A stretch of 64,000 nt of DNA from Escherichia phage sutha. Under the pieces are notes generated by a model that worked only from the letters and a program-made list of their open reading frames with translations, was not told the DNA's origin and did no database searches. Where the stretch lies: the sequence record PV245934.1; one strand, 5' to 3'. This document shows positions 16,283 to 56,643 of this stretch, piece by piece; positions within the stretch are counted from its first letter, which is position 1; each line of letters starts with the position of its first letter. A program made the position numbers and the translations under genes.

Positions 16283-17200
16283 TCAAAATTCATTAATGTT
16301 ATTAGTTAATTTAGAAAGACCCGCTTTTACAAAATATGAATAAATTTTGCCACGCGGTGGTAATTTATATGAATTATAGTAATTCACAATGTTTGAAGCA
16401 ATATTATCAGGAATATAATCAAAATCAATTAGAACTAAATTTTCTTTATATCGATTATATTCAGATTCAGTGAGAAGCACCTTAGCTTGCTCACGGTCAT
16501 TAGCAATAGCTTCAACGATTGAAGTTTTCATTGAAGGAGTTCGTTCACCTTCAACTCTAGTAAACCAAAAGTCAGATCGTACTTTAACTGAAGCAACGTT
16601 ATCCTTTTTGTCACCTTTAAGGATTTTAGTCATACAGTCAATTTCAGCAGAACCGCTTTTAATTTTAACCCATTTCTTGTGCATCGGTGACCATTGCTTA
16701 ACATTTGGGTATTTGTGAAGTTGAGTAAAGTCACCATCCGACGAAATGATTAAAATCTTATGTCCTTCTAAAGAGAACTTTTTAACCAAAACAGCAATAT
16801 GGTCATCTGCTTCATACTTATCAATATCCATAACGATGTATGGCATATAAGCTTTCAATTCATCTATAACTTTATGACTGGATTCAAAATAACCTTCCCA
16901 GTCCCAAGTAGATTCTTCTCGTGCTTTTCCACGGTTTTTCTTATAATAATAAGCAAAATCACGACGCCAGTATCCAGATTTCGCGTTATCAATACACAAT
17001 ACAATTTTAGTGTATCCAAGAGTTTTTGCTTTTTTGACATTAAACTTAATTGAGTTCAATATCAAATGACGAACCATTGATAAATTAATTTTTTCTTTAT
17101 CTGGGAAGTTTACCAAAGCAGTTGAAAGCGCAATTTGACTAAAGTCAATTAAGCAGATTCCTTCTTTGTAATCTTCATCCAGCATCATTTCTAAATCCAT
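16283..17200 (-). CDS. rnh: RNase H (5'-3' exonuclease, FEN family)
   Basis: MDLEMMLDEDYKEGICLIDFSQIALSTALV... 305 aa from internal Met. Confidence 0.9.
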   Translation of the reverse strand: MDLEMMLDEDYKEGICLIDFSQIALSTALVNFPDKEKINLSMVRHLILNSIKFNVKKAKTLGYTKIVLCIDNAKSGYWRRDFAYYYKKNRGKAREESTWDWEGYFESSHKVIDELKAYMPYIVMDIDKYEADDHIAVLVKKFSLEGHKILIISSDGDFTQLHKYPNVKQWSPMHKKWVKIKSGSAEIDCMTKILKGDKKDNVASVKVRSDFWFTRVEGERTPSMKTSIVEAIANDREQAKVLLTESEYNRYKENLVLIDFDYIPDNIASNIVNYYNSYKLPPRGKIYSYFVKAGLSKLTNNINEF

Positions 17201-17225
17201 ATGAACCTCGTTCAATTAGTGAGAT

Positions 17226-17259
17226 TTCTATTATATACCATCCGAATCTTAAAGTAAAC
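17226..17259 (-). promoter_or_regulatory. T4 early-type promoter upstream of rnh
   Basis: rc GTTTAC at 17254-17259, 17-nt spacer, TGGTATATAAT. Confidence 0.55.
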
Positions 17260-17262
17260 AAG

Positions 17263-17270
17263 TATAAATA
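17263..17270 (+). promoter_or_regulatory. T4 late promoter box TATAAATA for gene 34
   Basis: TATAAATA about 35 nt upstream of gene 34 ATG, divergent from the rnh early promoter. Confidence 0.6.
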
Positions 17271-17304
17271 CTTATTATTGAAAACACAATAGGAGCCCGG
17301 GAGA

Positions 17305-20300
17305 ATGGCCGAGATTAAAAGAAAGTTCAGAGCAGAAGACGGTCTGGACGCAGGTGGCGATAAAATAATCAACGTAGCTTTAGCTGATCGTACCGTAGGA
17401 ACTGACGGTGTTAACGTTGATTACCTAATTCAAGAAAACACAGTTCAACAATACGATCCAACTCGTGGATATTTAAAAGATTTTGTAATCATTTATGATA
17501 ACCGCTTTTGGGCTGCTATAAATGATATTCCAAAACCGGCAGGAGCTTTTAATAGTGGACGCTGGAGAGCATTACGTACAGATGCTAACTGGATTACAGT
17601 CTCATCTGGTTCATATCAATTAAAATCTGGTGAAGCTATTTCGGTTAACACTGCAGCTGGTAATGATATTACATTTACTTTGCCATCTACCCCAATTGAT
17701 GGTGATACTATCGTTCTCCAAGACATTGGAGGAAAACCTGGGGTTAACCAAGTTTTAATTGCAGCTTCAGTACAAAGTATTGTAAACTTTAGAGGTGAAC
17801 AAGTACGTTCAGTACTAATGACTCATCCAAAGTCGCAGTTAGTTTTAATTTTTAGTAATCGTCTGTGGCAAATGTATGTAGCTGATTATAGTAGAGAAGC
17901 TGTAGTTGTAACACCAGCGAATACTTATCAAGCGCAATCCAACGATTTTATCGTACGTAGATTTACTTCTGCTGCACCAATTAATGTTAAACTTCCAAGA
18001 TTTGCTAATCATGGCGATATTATTAATTTCGTCGATTTAGATAAACTAAATCCGCTTTATCATACAATTGTTACTACATACGATGAAACGACTTCAATAC
18101 AAGAAGTTGGAACTCATTCCATTGAAGGCCGTACAACGATTGACGGTTTCTTGATGTTTGATGATAATGAGAAATTGTGGAGATTGTTTGACGGGGATAG
18201 TAAAGCGCGTTTACGCATTATAACGACTAATTCTAATATTCGTCCAAATGAAGAAGTTATGGTATTTGGTGCGAATAACGGAACAGCTCAGACAATTGAA
18301 CTTCAGCTTCCGACTGATATTTCTGTTGGTGATACTGTCAAAATTTCCATGAATTACATGCGAAAAGGACAAACAGTTAAAATCAAAGCTGCCGGTGAAG
18401 ATAAAATTGCTTCTTCAGTTCAATTGCTGCAATTCCCAAAACGTTCAGAATATCCGCCTGAAGCTGAATGGGTAACTGTTCAAGAATTAGTTTTTAACGG
18501 TGAAACTAATTATGTTCCAGTTTTACAACTTGCTTATATAGAAGATTCTGACGGAAAATACTGGGTTGTACAACAAAACGTTCCAACCGTAGAAAGAGTT
18601 GATTCTTTGAATGATTCTACTAGAGCAAGATTAGGCGTGATTGCTTTAGCTACACAAGCGCAAGCTAATGTCGATTTAGAAAATTCTCCACAAAAAGAAT
18701 TAGCAATTACTCCAGAAACATTAGCTAACCGTACTGCTACAGAAACTCGTAGAGGTATCGCAAGAATAGCAACTACTGCTCAAGTGAATCAGAACACTAC
18801 ATTCTCTTTTGCTGACGATATTATCATCACTCCTAAAAAGCTGAATGAAAGAACTGCTACAGAAACTCGCAGAGGTGTTGCTGAAATTGCGACACAGCAA
18901 GAAACTAATGCAGGTACTGATGATACTACAATCATCACTCCTAAAAAGCTTCAAGCTCGTCAAGGTTCTGAATCATTATCTGGTATCGTAACCTTTGTAT
19001 CTACCGCAGGAGCTACTCCAGCTTCTAGCCGTGAATTAAATGGTACAAATGTTTACAATAAAAACACTAATAATTTAGTCGTTTCGCCTAAAGCTCTGGA
19101 TCAGTATAAAGCTACTCCAACACAGCAAGGTGCAGTAATTTTAGCAGTTGAAAGTGAAGTAATTGCTGGACAAAGCCAAGAAGGATGGGCAAATGCGGTT
19201 GTAACACCAGAAACGTTACATAAAAAGACATCAACTGATGGAAGAATTGGTTTAATTGAAATTGCTACGCAAAGTGAAGTTAATACAGGAACTGATTATA
19301 CTCGTGCAGTCACTCCTAAAACTTTAAATGACCGTATAGCAACTGAAAGTTTAAGTGGTATAGCTGAAATTGCTGCACAAGTTGAATTCGACGCAGGCGT
19401 CGACGATACTCGTATCTCTACACCATTAAAAATTAAAACTAGATTTAATAGTACTGATCGTACTTCTGTTGTTGCTCTATCTGGATTAGTTGAATCAGGA
19501 ACTCTCTGGGACCATTATACCCTTAATATTCTTGAAGCAAATGAGACACAGCGTGGTACACTTCGTGTGGCTACACAAGTTGAAGCTGCTGCAGGAACAT
19601 TAGATAATGTTTTAATAACTCCTAAAAAGCTTTTAGGTACTAAATCTACTGAAGCACAGGAAGGTGTTATTAAAGTTGCAACTCAGTCTGAAACTGTGAC
19701 TGGAACGTCAGCAAATACTGCTGTATCTCCAAAAAATTTAAAATGGATTGTGCAGAGTGAACCTACTTGGGCAGCTACTACTGCGATAAGAGGCTTTGTT
19801 AAAACTTCATCTGGTTCAATTACATTCGTTGGTAATGATACAGTTGGTTCAACGCAGTCGTTAGAATTATACGAGAAAAATAGCTATGCAGTATCACCGT
19901 ATGAATTAAACCGTGTATTAGCAAATTATTTGCCATTAAAAGCAAAAGCTGCTGACGCAAATTTATTAGATGGCCTAGATTCATCTCAGTTCATTCGTAG
20001 GGACATTGCACAGACGGTTAATGGTTCACTAACCTTAACCCAACAAACGAATCTGAGTGCCCCTCTTGTATCATCTAGTACTGCTACGTTTGGTGGTTCA
20101 GTTTCGGTAAATAGTACATTAACTATTTCTAATACTGGAACGGCAACTCGTCTGATTTTTGAAAAAGGACCTCAAACTGGAACTAACCCAGCACAGACAA
20201 TGAGCATCCGTGTATGGGGTAACCAGTATGGTGGCGGTTCAGATACAACACGTTCTACCGTATTTGAAGTTGGTGATGAAACGTCTAATCACTTTTATTC

Positions 20301-26259: not shown

Positions 26260-26811
26260 ATGAAAATCTATCATTATTATTTTGACACAAAAGAATTTTA
26301 CAAAGAAGAAAATTACAAACCGATTAAAGGTCTTGGTCTTCCTGCTCATTCAACAATTAAAAAACCTTTAGAACCTAAAGAAGGATACGCGGTTGTATTT
26401 GATGAACGTATTCAGGATTGGATTTATGAAGAAGACCATCGCGGCAAACGAGCATGGACTTTTAATAAAGAAGAAATTTTTATAAATGACATTGGAAGCC
26501 CAGTTGGTATAACTTTTGATGAACCCGGCGAATTTGACATATGGACTGATGATGGTTGGAAAGAAGATGAAACATATAAACGGGTTTTAATTCGTAATAG
26601 AAAAATTGAAGAATTATATAAAGAATTCCAAGTATTGAGTAATATGATCGAAGCTTCAGCTGCAAATAAAAAGGAAAAATTCTATCATCAAAACCTTAAA
26701 CGGTTCTTTGCTCTTTTAGAAAAGCATGAGCATTTAGGTGGTGAATTCCCTGCATGGCCTGAAAAAGAACGGAAGCCTTGGTATAAGCGTTTATTCAAGC
26801 ATTACGTATAA
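26260..26811 (+). CDS. 38: tail fibre assembly chaperone gp38 (T4 type)
   Basis: 183 aa, MKIYHYYFDTKEFYKEENYKP...KRLFKHYV. Confidence 0.9.
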   Translation: MKIYHYYFDTKEFYKEENYKPIKGLGLPAHSTIKKPLEPKEGYAVVFDERIQDWIYEEDHRGKRAWTFNKEEIFINDIGSPVGITFDEPGEFDIWTDDGWKEDETYKRVLIRNRKIEELYKEFQVLSNMIEASAANKKEKFYHQNLKRFFALLEKHEHLGGEFPAWPEKERKPWYKRLFKHYV

Positions 26812-26832
26812 ATATCTTAAAAAGGAGGGTCT

Positions 26833-27489
26833 ATGTCAGCACCTAGAATATCATTTTCGCCCTCTGATATTCTGTTGGGTGTTCTAGATCGCTTGTTCAA
26901 AGATAACGCTACCGGGAATGTTCTTGCTTCCCGGGTAGCTGTCGTAATTCTTTTATTTATGATGGCGATTGTTTGGTATAGGGGAGATAGTTTCTTTGAG
27001 TACTATAAGCAATCAAAGTATGAAACATACAGTGAAATTATTGAAAAGGAAAGAAATGCACGCTTTGAATCTGTCGCCCTGGAACAACTCCAGATAGTTC
27101 ATATATCATCTGAGGCAGACTTTAGTGCGGTGTATTCTTTCCGCCCTAAAAACTTAAACTATTTTGTTGATATTATAGCATATGAAGGAAGATTACCTTC
27201 AACAATAAGTGAAAAATCACTTGGAGGATATCCTGTTGATAAAACTATGGATGAATATACAGTTCATTTAAATGGACGTCATTATTATTCCAACTCAAAA
27301 TTTGCTTTTTTGCCAACTAAAAAGCCTACTCCCGAAATAAACTACATGTACAGTTGTCCATATTTTAATTTGGATAACATCTATGCTGGAACAATAACCA
27401 TGTACTGGTATAGAAATGATCATATAAGTAATGACCGCCTTGAATCAATATGTTCTCAGGCGGCCAGAATATTAGGAAGGGCTAAATAA
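26833..27489 (+). CDS. t: holin
   Basis: 218 aa, MSAPRISFSPSDILLGVLDRLFKDN..., single TM helix then large periplasmic domain. Confidence 0.9.
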   Translation: MSAPRISFSPSDILLGVLDRLFKDNATGNVLASRVAVVILLFMMAIVWYRGDSFFEYYKQSKYETYSEIIEKERNARFESVALEQLQIVHISSEADFSAVYSFRPKNLNYFVDIIAYEGRLPSTISEKSLGGYPVDKTMDEYTVHLNGRHYYSNSKFAFLPTKKPTPEINYMYSCPYFNLDNIYAGTITMYWYRNDHISNDRLESICSQAARILGRAK

Positions 27490-50971: not shown

Positions 50972-51003
50972 GTAATTCTCCTTTTATTTAAATTACATGA
51001 TTA

Positions 51004-51011
51004 TTTATATC
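51004..51011 (-). promoter_or_regulatory. T4 late promoter box (rc TATAAATA) for soc
   Basis: rc GATATAAATAATC about 30 nt upstream of soc ATG. Confidence 0.55.
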
Positions 51012-51179
51012 AGTCTTCAACGAAAACTTGTGCCAGGAATTCATGTTCATCTTGAATTTGTTTATATAAAGCCATTACAGCATTTATATTAGAGCTATCT
51101 ACTTTAAGCTGATAAGCATACCACTCGTATAAATTAATTAAAGCTTTTTGACGTCTAATAAATTCTTCTTTGGATATTT

Positions 51180-51380
51180 TCATTTTGAATGTTCTATAAT
51201 TAATTTTAAGGCTTCTTCGCTGACAAAAATTTCATCAGGACCTTCTTCTACAACCCAATCAACCACACGAAGCTGATTAGATAAGAGCTCGCATACGAGC
51301 TCTTTGTCATAATTTTTAAATAGCTGGTCAATACGTTTCTTGCGGGCTTTCTTAAGCTGGCGTTTATTTAAACGAGCCAT
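51180..51380 (-). CDS. hypothetical protein (66 aa)
   Basis: ORF track. Confidence 0.4.
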   Translation of the reverse strand: MARLNKRQLKKARKKRIDQLFKNYDKELVCELLSNQLRVVDWVVEEGPDEIFVSEEALKLIIEHSK

Positions 51381-51898
51381 TAATAACCTCGATCTTGACG
51401 AGCGAAGTTTTCAGCATTCTTCAAATAATAAAGTTTAAAGATTTCTTCAGCCGTAAGACCGAGACCTTGGAACATGTTCAGAACGAAATGAAGAATATCA
51501 ATCATTTCAAATTTAATTTCCAACTGGTCTTGAGGAGACAAATCAGTAATTAGAGTTTCACGACGTTCACCATGCTGCGACTTCCAAGGCTTCCATACAG
51601 CAGATGCATCTTTTTCACCATTGCTCATACCACCAAGAGAAGTCAGAAGTTCACGGAATTCATCATCAATGTAATCTTTCTGATTACGCAGCCAATCAAC
51701 AACTTCGCCTGCAGTAGCCAAATCATCAGGATGACGGTTATATTCAGGTTTATCTTTAGCTAAACGAACCTGCAAAGATTTCTGCATATCAAGCATAACC
51801 TGCAGCGGGTCTTTTTCATCACCGAGAATATCCCAATATTCGTTTTGAGCTTTATCAGCGCCTTCGATCAGTTGTGAACATTCATTAAAGTATGCCAT
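51380..51898 (-). CDS. 56: dCTPase / dCTP pyrophosphatase gp56
   Basis: About 172 aa from internal Met MAYFNECSQLIEGADKAQNEYW...; MazG-like; ORF track extends 31 codons upstream. Confidence 0.8.
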   Translation of the reverse strand: MAYFNECSQLIEGADKAQNEYWDILGDEKDPLQVMLDMQKSLQVRLAKDKPEYNRHPDDLATAGEVVDWLRNQKDYIDDEFRELLTSLGGMSNGEKDASAVWKPWKSQHGERRETLITDLSPQDQLEIKFEMIDILHFVLNMFQGLGLTAEEIFKLYYLKNAENFARQDRGY

Positions 51899-51929
51899 TA
51901 TTTTTCCTTTCAATTCATGGATTAGTAGA

Positions 51930-51960
51930 TTAATTATACAATAAATATATAAAGCAATAA
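51930..51960 (-). promoter_or_regulatory. T4 middle promoter (MotA box plus -10) for gene 56
   Basis: rc TTGCTTTA (MotA box) then 12 nt then TATAAT. Confidence 0.5.
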
Positions 51961-51969
51961 GGAGGACAT

Positions 51970-52170
51970 ATGGTACAAAAATTAATGGCACTTGTTAATG
52001 CCATCAAAGGTAATAAAAAACGTATAGCTTTTACTATTTCTGCTATGATAGGAATTTTACTTTGGAATTTTGTTTTATCGCCAGTTGCTCTTGCTCATGG
52101 CGTTAGTATTCCAGTAATTACTCTTGATACATTCGTAGATTTAGCATTTGCTTTAGTTGGGTTAATTTAA
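51970..52170 (+). CDS. small hydrophobic protein (66 aa) on opposite strand, between 56 and 61
   Basis: Strong SD AAGGAGGA 7 nt upstream of ATG; two predicted TM helices; convergent with gene 61 stop. Confidence 0.4.
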   Translation: MVQKLMALVNAIKGNKKRIAFTISAMIGILLWNFVLSPVALAHGVSIPVITLDTFVDLAFALVGLI

Positions 52171-53195
52171 ATCTTAGCATATTTAGATAGACGCATTTTA
52201 GCCATCAACCCCTGAGCAATATTATTTTTCATATATTCCATAATTTGTTCAGGGGTTGCACCTTCCTTTCTAATCATATCATTAACATCTTTTGATTTCC
52301 AGGGAGATTTGTCCCAAAACATAACCCTTTCTCCTGCATCAACCAATTTAGTCATTCGTTTAATAGTGTCAGGATGACGAGGTTCATTATCTAAAACCCA
52401 TACACGTCTATCTTTAAATGGAACAATTTCTAGGTCTAATTGACCACCTGTAATAGCTATACCATTTTCAATAAAAAGTGAATCTATAGGTCCTTCTAGA
52501 ACATATACATCACCATCTTTGACTCGTTCGACTCCATATATTTTTGTTGCCTCAGGATAAGCTTTGATGGTGATATATTTTTGAGGAGCATCTTTCTTTA
52601 ATGCACGTCCTTGAAAAGACTCAGCTTTTCCATTAGCATTATAAATTGGAATAACAAGACGAGGCTCAGGTATTTCCTTTTTGTATGTTCCTGGTGCTAT
52701 GCTATTAACTAATTTAGGCCATTCGGTTGTAAACCAAAGATATTTCCATTTGTCCTTTGGAATACAACGAGCTTTTACGTATTTTATAATTGGATGGTCT
52801 TCCGCCAGTTTATCTAATCTAATACATGATGGAAGAGATTTAATTATTTTCTTCTCGGGTTGTTTAGGAAGTTCTTTAGGTTTTTCTACTGAACGACTTT
52901 TACCTTTTTCTTTTCTTATTTCAAAGATATACTCACGATATAAATCGGGTTCAAACTCCTTTAAATATATTCCGATTGGTGCATGATAGTTACAGTTATA
53001 ACAATGAATATTTCCTTCATTATTATCACCATAATACCATCCACGGGCTTTATTTTGGTCGGTTTTTGAATCTCCACAAACAGGGCATCTAAACCGCAAT
53101 TTAAAAGTTGAACTATTATTTACTTGTGTGAATTTAGGTAAATGAGCTAATGCACGGTATGCAAACTCATTATCAATCCAAGGTATTGATGACAT
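52167..53195 (-). CDS. 61: DNA primase gp61
   Basis: 342 aa, N-terminal zinc-ribbon CPVCGDS...CYNC, TOPRIM region. Confidence 0.9.
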   Translation of the reverse strand: MSSIPWIDNEFAYRALAHLPKFTQVNNSSTFKLRFRCPVCGDSKTDQNKARGWYYGDNNEGNIHCYNCNYHAPIGIYLKEFEPDLYREYIFEIRKEKGKSRSVEKPKELPKQPEKKIIKSLPSCIRLDKLAEDHPIIKYVKARCIPKDKWKYLWFTTEWPKLVNSIAPGTYKKEIPEPRLVIPIYNANGKAESFQGRALKKDAPQKYITIKAYPEATKIYGVERVKDGDVYVLEGPIDSLFIENGIAITGGQLDLEIVPFKDRRVWVLDNEPRHPDTIKRMTKLVDAGERVMFWDKSPWKSKDVNDMIRKEGATPEQIMEYMKNNIAQGLMAKMRLSKYAKI

Positions 53196-56280: not shown

Positions 56281-56643
56281 TTAAAAGAATTTAAATTTTT
56301 TCTTTGACCTTTTATTAAATGCATCTTGTAGTTGCATTGTAATACATTTTTCTACATGAGGAGCTAACTCAGCTTTTCTTTCTTGGTCAAGAACAGCAAA
56401 GTCCATTACGACTTTTCCATCAACCCAATCTAATTTTGTCACATACACAATGTGTGTAGAACCGTCTTCTAGTTTAATGACAATCTCCTGGATAACATTT
56501 TCCATAGCAGATTTAATTATCTTAAGAGATTCATTAAAAAGACGTTCTTTTCTTTCTTCTTCCCCCTCCGAAGAGGGGGATTCATCGATAATTTCTAGAT
56601 CTAAATCTAAATCATCTTTATTCATTAAATTCTTCCATATCAC
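56281..56643 (-). CDS. 40: gp40 head assembly protein (by position)
   Basis: 120-aa ORF between uvsX and 41; acidic region ESPSSEGEEE. Confidence 0.6.
   Translation of the reverse strand: MIWKNLMNKDDLDLDLEIIDESPSSEGEEERKERLFNESLKIIKSAMENVIQEIVIKLEDGSTHIVYVTKLDWVDGKVVMDFAVLDQERKAELAPHVEKCITMQLQDAFNKRSKKKFKFF

Follow-up and report, generated by a model that had tools for sequence, protein, structure and literature searches.

A small, probably protein-coding late gene beside the primase gene of enterobacterial Tevenvirinae, including phage T4

Imm, Sp (gene 61.3), and RI of the T-even phages are small, non-enzymatic, envelope-targeted products of accessory genes of the dispensable type (PMC6832632), and the three genes lie on the early strand and are expressed early. 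The small open reading frame (ORF) described here is located in the same gene 61 cluster as sp, three genes away from it. Unlike imm, sp, and rI, it is carried by the opposite strand and has a late-type promoter upstream, and its product has no sequence similarity to Imm, Sp, or RI. The rapid-lysis locus rIV also maps in the gene 61 cluster; rIV has been equated with sp (PMC6832632), which rules it out as a candidate for the small ORF. Outside the T-even phages, the class II holins or pinholins, represented by S21-68 of phage 21, resemble the predicted protein in their length of about 65 to 70 aa and in the polar residues within their hydrophobic segments, and both are presumably late-expressed and plausibly oligomeric membrane proteins. 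A small hydrophobic membrane peptide is likewise the product of type I toxin-antitoxin systems such as Hok/Sok and TisB/IstR. For late transcription in T4, the promoter is TATAAATA, with 32 of 50 listed sites being perfect and 9 of 50 carrying an A at position -13 (Geiduschek and Kassavetis review, PMC2988020).

The DNA analyzed is a stretch of 64,000 nucleotides of Escherichia phage sutha (PV245934.1), referred to below as the window. It is part of a Tequatrovirus genome with about 96% identity to phage REP4 and its relatives. Genes 56 and 61 are separated by 268 bp (51899..52166), in agreement with the roughly 270 bp given in an earlier note on this sequence, and the 66-aa plus-strand ORF, its near-consensus Shine-Dalgarno (SD) sequence, and its overlap with the gene 61 stop codon were all found where that note had placed them (Table 1). 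The GGAGG core of the SD sequence spans positions 51961 to 51965 and ends 4 nt 5' of the ATG. In REP4 (OQ174503.1), the closest complete relative, the ORF is located at 75928..76128. There, it is the sole annotated plus-strand coding sequence in approximately 84 kb of minus-strand early and middle genes (50,827-134,342).

Table 1 Features of the gene 56-gene 61 region in the window
Feature	Position	Strand	Basis and remarks
Gene 56 (dCTPase), divergent neighbor of the small ORF	51380..51898	-	ORF list
MotA-type middle promoter of gene 56	51933..51958	-	Pattern scan; ATTGCTTTA 51958-51950, N11, -10 TATAAT 51938-51933
Junction replacing about 900 bp of T4 (dam coding sequence and upstream region, T4 L001 2327-3225)	51939..51958 (20 bp)		blastn of the T4 locus against the window
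Late-promoter-like AATAAATA, A(-13) variant of TATAAATA	51940..51947	+	Ends 22 nt 5' of the ATG
Shine-Dalgarno AAGGAGGA	51959..51966	+	Sequence; ends 3 nt 5' of the ATG
Small ORF, 66 aa and stop, MVQKLMALVNAIKGNKKRIAFTISAMIGILLWNFVLSPVALAHGVSIPVITLDTFVDLAFALVGLI	51970..52170	+	ORF list; PHROG 2024 member, subfamily A
Terminator-like hairpin, 11 pairs, stem 52007..51982, then TTTTTGT	51972..52007	-	Scan; within ORF codons 5-13
Gene 61 (DNA primase), convergent neighbor of the small ORF	52167..53195	-	ORF list
Convergent 4-nt overlap of small-ORF TAA (52168-52170) and gene 61 stop (52169..52167, -)	52167..52170	Both	

The earlier note had expected dam between genes 56 and 61, as on the T4 map, and had read the small ORF as occupying its place. 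This position of dam is confirmed by the T4 annotation, in which dam spans 16846-17625 between the two genes. The second part of the claim does not hold. In T4, dam and gene 61 are separated by an unannotated gap of 309 bp, which contains the same ORF at 17738..17938 (+) of NC_000866 (3239..3439 of the T4 locus, L001), with the same SD sequence and 91% amino acid identity. T4 thus has both dam and the small ORF, which rules out a replacement of one by the other. The ORF is unannotated in the T4 records NC_000866, AF158101, K03113, and X01416.

As the note had indicated, dam is missing from the sutha locus, and no Dam homologue was found elsewhere by tblastn with T4 Dam, either in the 64-kb window (best E value, 1.6) or in the whole REP4 genome (E≤1). 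In the phage collection, T4-type Dam (≥90% identity) is present in 182 records, in comparison to about 502 records with the Tequatrovirus-type ORF (≥80% identity), and about a third of the Tequatrovirus records have T4-type Dam. Other genera also show the compact layout without dam. The absence of dam is the common state in Tequatrovirus and a separate matter from the small ORF. Most simply, dam can be read as an accessory insertion carried by a minority of the Tequatroviruses, and the small ORF as the conserved resident.

The junction between gene 56 and the small ORF (L001 2327-3225 and L013 1780-2430 in the compared loci, 51939-51958 in the window) is an insertion hotspot. In T4 and T2 it is occupied by dam, in Yersinia phage fPS-2 by a homing endonuclease gene, and in RPN226 by an HNH endonuclease; it is empty in the sutha window and in most Tequatroviruses.

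The small ORF was identified in 695 phage records by tblastn, 685 of which cover at least 80% of its length. Its placement between a divergent gene 56 and a convergent gene 61 is shared by T4, fPS-2, ZX14, ESCO47, VR20, Pu-Krd-SF4, and JD18, and this synteny extends over at least five genera of the Tevenvirinae (Tequatrovirus, Mosigvirus, Gaprivervirus, Kanagawavirus, and Jiaodavirus). The 4-nt overlap of stop codons is identical in T4, in Mosigvirus-type loci, and at the second cistron of Gaprivervirus loci. The suggestion that the ORF is specific to one lineage is contradicted by this synteny in five genera including T4: comparison of the interval among T4-like phages shows the ORF to be conserved and not confined to close kin.

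Selection was assessed on 26 unique nucleotide sequences from four genera. The median pairwise dN/dS equals 0.21, and the pooled pN/pS within Tequatrovirus is 0.18 in frame +0; the remaining five frames give 0.30 to 1.55. Because the counts pool related sequences, they are descriptive and do not amount to a formal likelihood test, but their signal is consistent. Frame +0 is the only frame that is free of stop codons in all 26 sequences. Between genera, synonymous sites are saturated and the proteins are approximately 50% identical, and one phage carries an in-frame deletion of three codons. The substitution pattern indicates that the ORF is under purifying selection. In Tequatrovirus, the terminator hairpin of the minus strand could also account for part of the conservation at the 5' end of the coding sequence.

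An ORF that had arisen by accident in an AT-rich intergenic spacer, as the earlier note had considered, might be short and missing from the T4 reference annotation, as this one is. That reading is refuted by the comparative data, including the frame-specific selection: the pN/pS of 0.18 and the uniquely open frame speak against it, as do the open, full-length state in 685 of 695 records, the purifying selection, the conserved SD sequence and promoter motif, the paralogues, and the synteny across genera. It is almost certainly wrong. In our view, the small ORF is fairly likely to be a genuine late gene that encodes a protein and is conserved beside the primase gene across the enterobacterial Tevenvirinae, including T4. 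T4 is among the most thoroughly annotated phage genomes, and yet its map is blank over the 309 bp where the gene appears to sit; annotating the ORF would correct the T4 reference (NC_000866 and AF158101).

The product matches the profile of PHROG 2024 (E = 2e-30; residues 2 to 66 on profile positions 1 to 65 of 65). The genes of this PHROG that lie between genes 56 and 61 (fPS-2 g031, VR20 gp029, JD18 gp010, ZX14 orf00083, and "RB32ORF030w") are of the same family, length, position, orientation, and signature. No difference from the small ORF was seen, and the small ORF belongs to the family, which databases already list under hypothetical proteins. What the present analysis corrects is that the ORF goes unannotated in T4, that it does not replace dam, and that a missing dam is ordinary. 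The small protein gave no match in Pfam, NCBIfam, or PADLOC, and Foldseek returned only its own family in BFVD and nothing in the PDB at E≤0.001. A literature search covering T4 Ribo-seq, mapping of transcription start sites and 5' ends, proteomics, unannotated ORFs, and locus names found no report on the ORF.

Profile searches divide the family into three subfamilies, A, B, and C, of 63 to 69 aa, all located between gene 56 and the primase gene and convergent with the latter. Subfamily A, to which the sutha protein belongs, has the pattern AIKGNKKR...LLWNF..P.A.AHG..P...D..VD...GLI. Subfamily B follows MGTxFYQIWKL...WNLLVVPIAATQG.LPQVT.EH..., and its members also match PHROG 2024 (3e-27, 2e-24, and 8e-20). 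Subfamily C is that of Jiaodavirus. The family signature is W-N-x4-P-x5-G-x3-P-x4-[D/E], in which W32, N33, and P38 are invariant, G44 and P48 nearly so, and D/E53 is present in nearly all full-length members. A hidden Markov model search of 1.84 billion representative proteins yielded only 15 matches, all of 33 to 70 aa with the same motif, so the family is confined. Of these matches, 12 measure 57 to 70 aa, and the other three look like fragments.

Some lineages carry two members in tandem. The order is A then B in Gaprivervirus (L008 2495-2692 and 2701-2901) and B then A in Mosigvirus ESCO47 (L028 2299-2502 and 2495-2692). Only B is present in Kanagawavirus ZX14; Jiaodavirus carries the third type. 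The paralogues keep only protein-level motifs, at 18 to 31% identity. In VR20, the B copy (L029 2701-2899) is unannotated and shows a GGA-to-TGA change at codon 2 together with a 2-nt deletion, and the A copy is intact; the B copy is apparently a pseudogene or reflects a sequencing error.

Upstream of the small ORF, two promoters of different temporal classes lie back to back. On the minus strand, the earlier note had proposed a middle promoter for gene 56. This is borne out by a match to the middle-promoter pattern, a MotA box (a/t)(a/t)TGCTT(t/c)A located 11 to 13 bp upstream of a TAnnnT -10 element, and by a base-for-base alignment with T4 P(M)16.53, annotated in X01416. The pattern has six matches in the window, against 1.1 expected from shuffled sequences. 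The late-type motif of the small ORF sits in the spacer of this opposite-strand promoter, giving a 26-bp overlap of two temporal classes, and 71 bp therefore serve two divergent genes that belong to different classes. In Gaprivervirus, the late motif overlaps the MotA box itself.

In every lineage examined, the first plus-strand cistron is preceded, at a distance of 15 to 23 nt, by a NATAAATA element, and a GGAG-type SD sequence is retained in all lineages, although the upstream DNA is otherwise unalignable. The element takes the form GATAAATA in T4 (17709-17716) and other insert-bearing Tequatroviruses, CATAAATA in Gaprivervirus and ESCO47, AATAAATA in the window and in Mosigvirus-type loci, and perfect TATAAATA in Kanagawavirus ZX14. 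None of the Escherichia phage versions is perfect, and a G or C at position -13 is among the rarer deviations. In the tandem pairs, the second cistron lacks a motif of this type upstream. The plus strand of the window has only eight NATAAATA-type motifs, and at least four of the other seven, among them that of the holin gene t, lie directly before an SD sequence and ATG; the chance of a motif at the right spacing is about 0.001 per start codon. Two sites in the window serve as internal controls, with perfect TATAAATA at 26807 (+) before the holin gene t (MSAPRISFSP...), in the same layout, and at 51002 (-) before soc.

The small ORF therefore has the sequence hallmark of a late gene, a TATAAATA-type -10 element shortly 5' of the start with no -35 element being required, and a scan for plus-strand sigma-70 promoters found no convincing candidate 5' of it. 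We infer that it is transcribed late by gp55-RNA polymerase, which would produce a late mRNA with a short leader. A scan for plus-strand terminator-like sites found none for 4.2 kb downstream, that is, none before position 56358. Consequently, unless it is halted by Rho, a late transcript must continue into gene 61 in antisense, and the predicted mRNA would lack an intrinsic terminator. If this holds, the locus would combine, in little space, middle and late promoters placed back to back with a late transcript antisense to the primase gene.

On the minus strand, the terminator-like hairpin within the 5' part of the ORF has folding energies of -8.9 to -12.4 kcal/mol in Tequatrovirus loci. A terminator was annotated independently at this hairpin in Yersinia phage fPS-2, and the other genera examined show no equivalent. 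The hairpin is likely the end point of gene 61 transcripts in Tequatrovirus. The earlier note had also raised the option of an origin-associated transcript region. According to the T4 annotation, the oriA primer is a minus-strand RNA that starts at the middle promoter and extends into gene 56, leading away from the small ORF, which shares with it only the 71-bp divergent control region. The origin reading was rejected because the primer runs in the opposite direction.

The predicted protein is basic over residues 1 to 18 (net charge, +5) and has no basic residue after R18. Digestion with trypsin would give essentially a single usable peptide, LMALVNAIK. Residues 19 to 42, approximately, form a clear transmembrane (TM) segment with a Kyte-Doolittle value of about 2.0, which supports the earlier description of a membrane peptide. 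The 24 C-terminal residues contain D53 and D57, and the protein ends in ...AFALVGLI. Within this part, residues 48 to 66 score 1.87 here and 1.6 to 2.0 across subfamily A, in contrast to 0.4 to 1.2 in B and C, so that the hydrophobicity suffices for a TM span in A only, and the C-terminal segment is amphipathic in all subfamilies. AlphaFold2 models place helices at residues 2-11, 15-42, and 52-63 in subfamily A (pLDDT, 78) and at 2-11, 14-41, and 51-62 in subfamily B (pLDDT, 74), and both contain a 9-residue loop with the conserved G and P. Of two TM helices, as predicted previously, a first at residues 19 to 42 is clear; a second at residues 48 to 66 is doubtful, since this segment is hydrophobic here but modeled with only a 12-residue helix, and it is not hydrophobic in B and C. 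As modeled, the conserved architecture consists of a single 28-residue TM helix and an amphipathic C-terminal helix of 12 residues, in place of two conserved TM helices.

The N-terminal net charge ranges from +2 to +5 in subfamilies A and B. In subfamily C it is 0 overall, with a membrane-proximal KTNKGK stretch of +3. The charge on the C-terminal side is 0 to -2. By the positive-inside rule, the N terminus would face the cytoplasm, and the C-terminal helix would be interfacial or reentrant. The product would be pictured as a 66-residue inner membrane microprotein. From its N to its C terminus, it would comprise a basic cytoplasmic helix, a TM helix of approximately 28 residues, a short loop in the periplasm, and an acidic, amphipathic helix of 12 residues lying at the outer leaflet or within it. 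The periplasm-proximal half of the protein would contain the family signature.

With low confidence, we propose that the ORF encodes a late-made inner membrane microprotein with an accessory role in the envelope, an assignment drawn from location, size, timing, and evolutionary pattern. The protein has no room for an enzymatic activity and hence would act by binding or oligomerizing in the cytoplasmic membrane late in infection, making protein-protein or protein-lipid contacts at the periplasmic face. It may assist, as an accessory factor, in a process of the envelope, for instance in membrane permeability and the timing of lysis, or in exclusion. The fast divergence into subfamilies and the lineage-specific tandem paralogues suggest a variable partner. 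To our knowledge, saturating classical screens mapped no T4 lysis (r) mutant locus to this site. If the proposal is correct, T4 geneticists would gain another small envelope protein for assays of lysis timing, lysis inhibition, and exclusion.

Other functions have to be weighed against this proposal. The selected function might be that of an RNA, acting as a late antisense transcript to the 3' part of the primase mRNA or as the 3' untranslated region (UTR) or terminator of gene 61, the ORF being incidental or secondary. The ORF is convergent with gene 61 in all cases and overlaps it in most, the 4.2 kb downstream are devoid of plus-strand terminator-like sites, and in Tequatrovirus, where the gene 61 terminator lies inside the ORF, the two mRNAs would be fully complementary over about 190 nt. 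This complementarity of the predicted mRNA to the convergent gene 61 3' UTR, up to the terminator, recalls type I toxin-antitoxin systems. It differs from them in that the complementary RNA is an mRNA tail and not a dedicated small RNA, there is no homology, and the minus-strand terminator that sets the overlap exists only in Tequatrovirus. That same lack of a conserved hairpin outside Tequatrovirus argues against a function at the RNA level. Moreover, a function of this kind alone does not predict a pN/pS of 0.18 in one frame, an open frame maintained across saturated synonymous divergence with a strong SD sequence and in-frame indels, or paralogues that share protein motifs alone at 18 to 31% identity. 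We regard it as unlikely. An antisense role could exist besides coding, and an effect of the ORF transcript on the primase mRNA is possible as a second layer.

A holin- or pinholin-like lysis protein that oligomerizes and permeabilizes the inner membrane would suit the small size, the late-type promoter, and the two hydrophobic segments of subfamily A, with their polar residues, the invariant N33, and the conserved D/E53; UniProt names one member "Holin," apparently automatically. Against this, the second segment is not conserved as a TM helix, being nonhydrophobic in B and C (Kyte-Doolittle, 0.4 to 1.2) with 12 helical residues modeled, and the highly charged, hydrophilic, cytoplasmic C-terminal tail of class II holins such as S21-68 is absent, the protein ending in ...VGLI. 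Linkage to an endolysin or other lysis genes is missing as well (in REP4, the ORF lies at 75,928, the endolysin gene at 122,418, and the spanin genes at 26,318-26,967), T4 already has the holin T, whose gene is found in the window behind the late motif at 26807, and the protein has no sequence, fold, or profile match to holin families. This makes a holin quite improbable. The protein could instead be a precursor cut by signal peptidase I after residue 42 (..P-V-A-L-A / H-G..), releasing a hydrophobic acidic periplasmic peptide of about 24 residues. The basic N-region, the invariant proline at -5 (P38), and small residues at -3 and -1 in every subfamily (A-x-A, L-x-A, A-x-T, and A-x-S, judged by eye) would fit such a site. 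The hydrophobic run of about 19 to 24 residues, modeled as one continuous 28-residue helix, fits a TM anchor and contrasts with a Sec h-region of about 7 to 15 residues, and the N-terminal half (AIKGNKKR and LLWNF) shows no less conservation than the C-terminal half, which is unusual for a disposable signal peptide. We hold cleavage to be highly improbable. Also very unlikely is a combined scheme in which signal peptidase I cuts behind the conserved P-x-A-x-[A/T/S] site and releases the amphipathic acidic peptide of about 24 residues, HGVSIPVITLDTFVDLAFALVGLI, into the periplasm late in infection, and the terminator-less mRNA also silences the primase mRNA through antisense pairing. If true, the phage would secrete a peptide that targets the envelope or affects interactions with neighboring or superinfecting phages.

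The surroundings of the locus also differ from T4. Gene 61 of the window has 96.6% nucleotide identity to its T4 counterpart. Gene 56 has only 76%, in contrast to 89 to 97% in the flanks. Next to it, two small ORFs of 57 and 66 aa, one of them annotated as soc.2 in related phages, are found where T4 has the homing endonuclease gene segF (listed with window positions 51010..51380, -). The combination of a low-identity gene 56 and a changed segF site resembles SegF-associated marker exclusion around gene 56.
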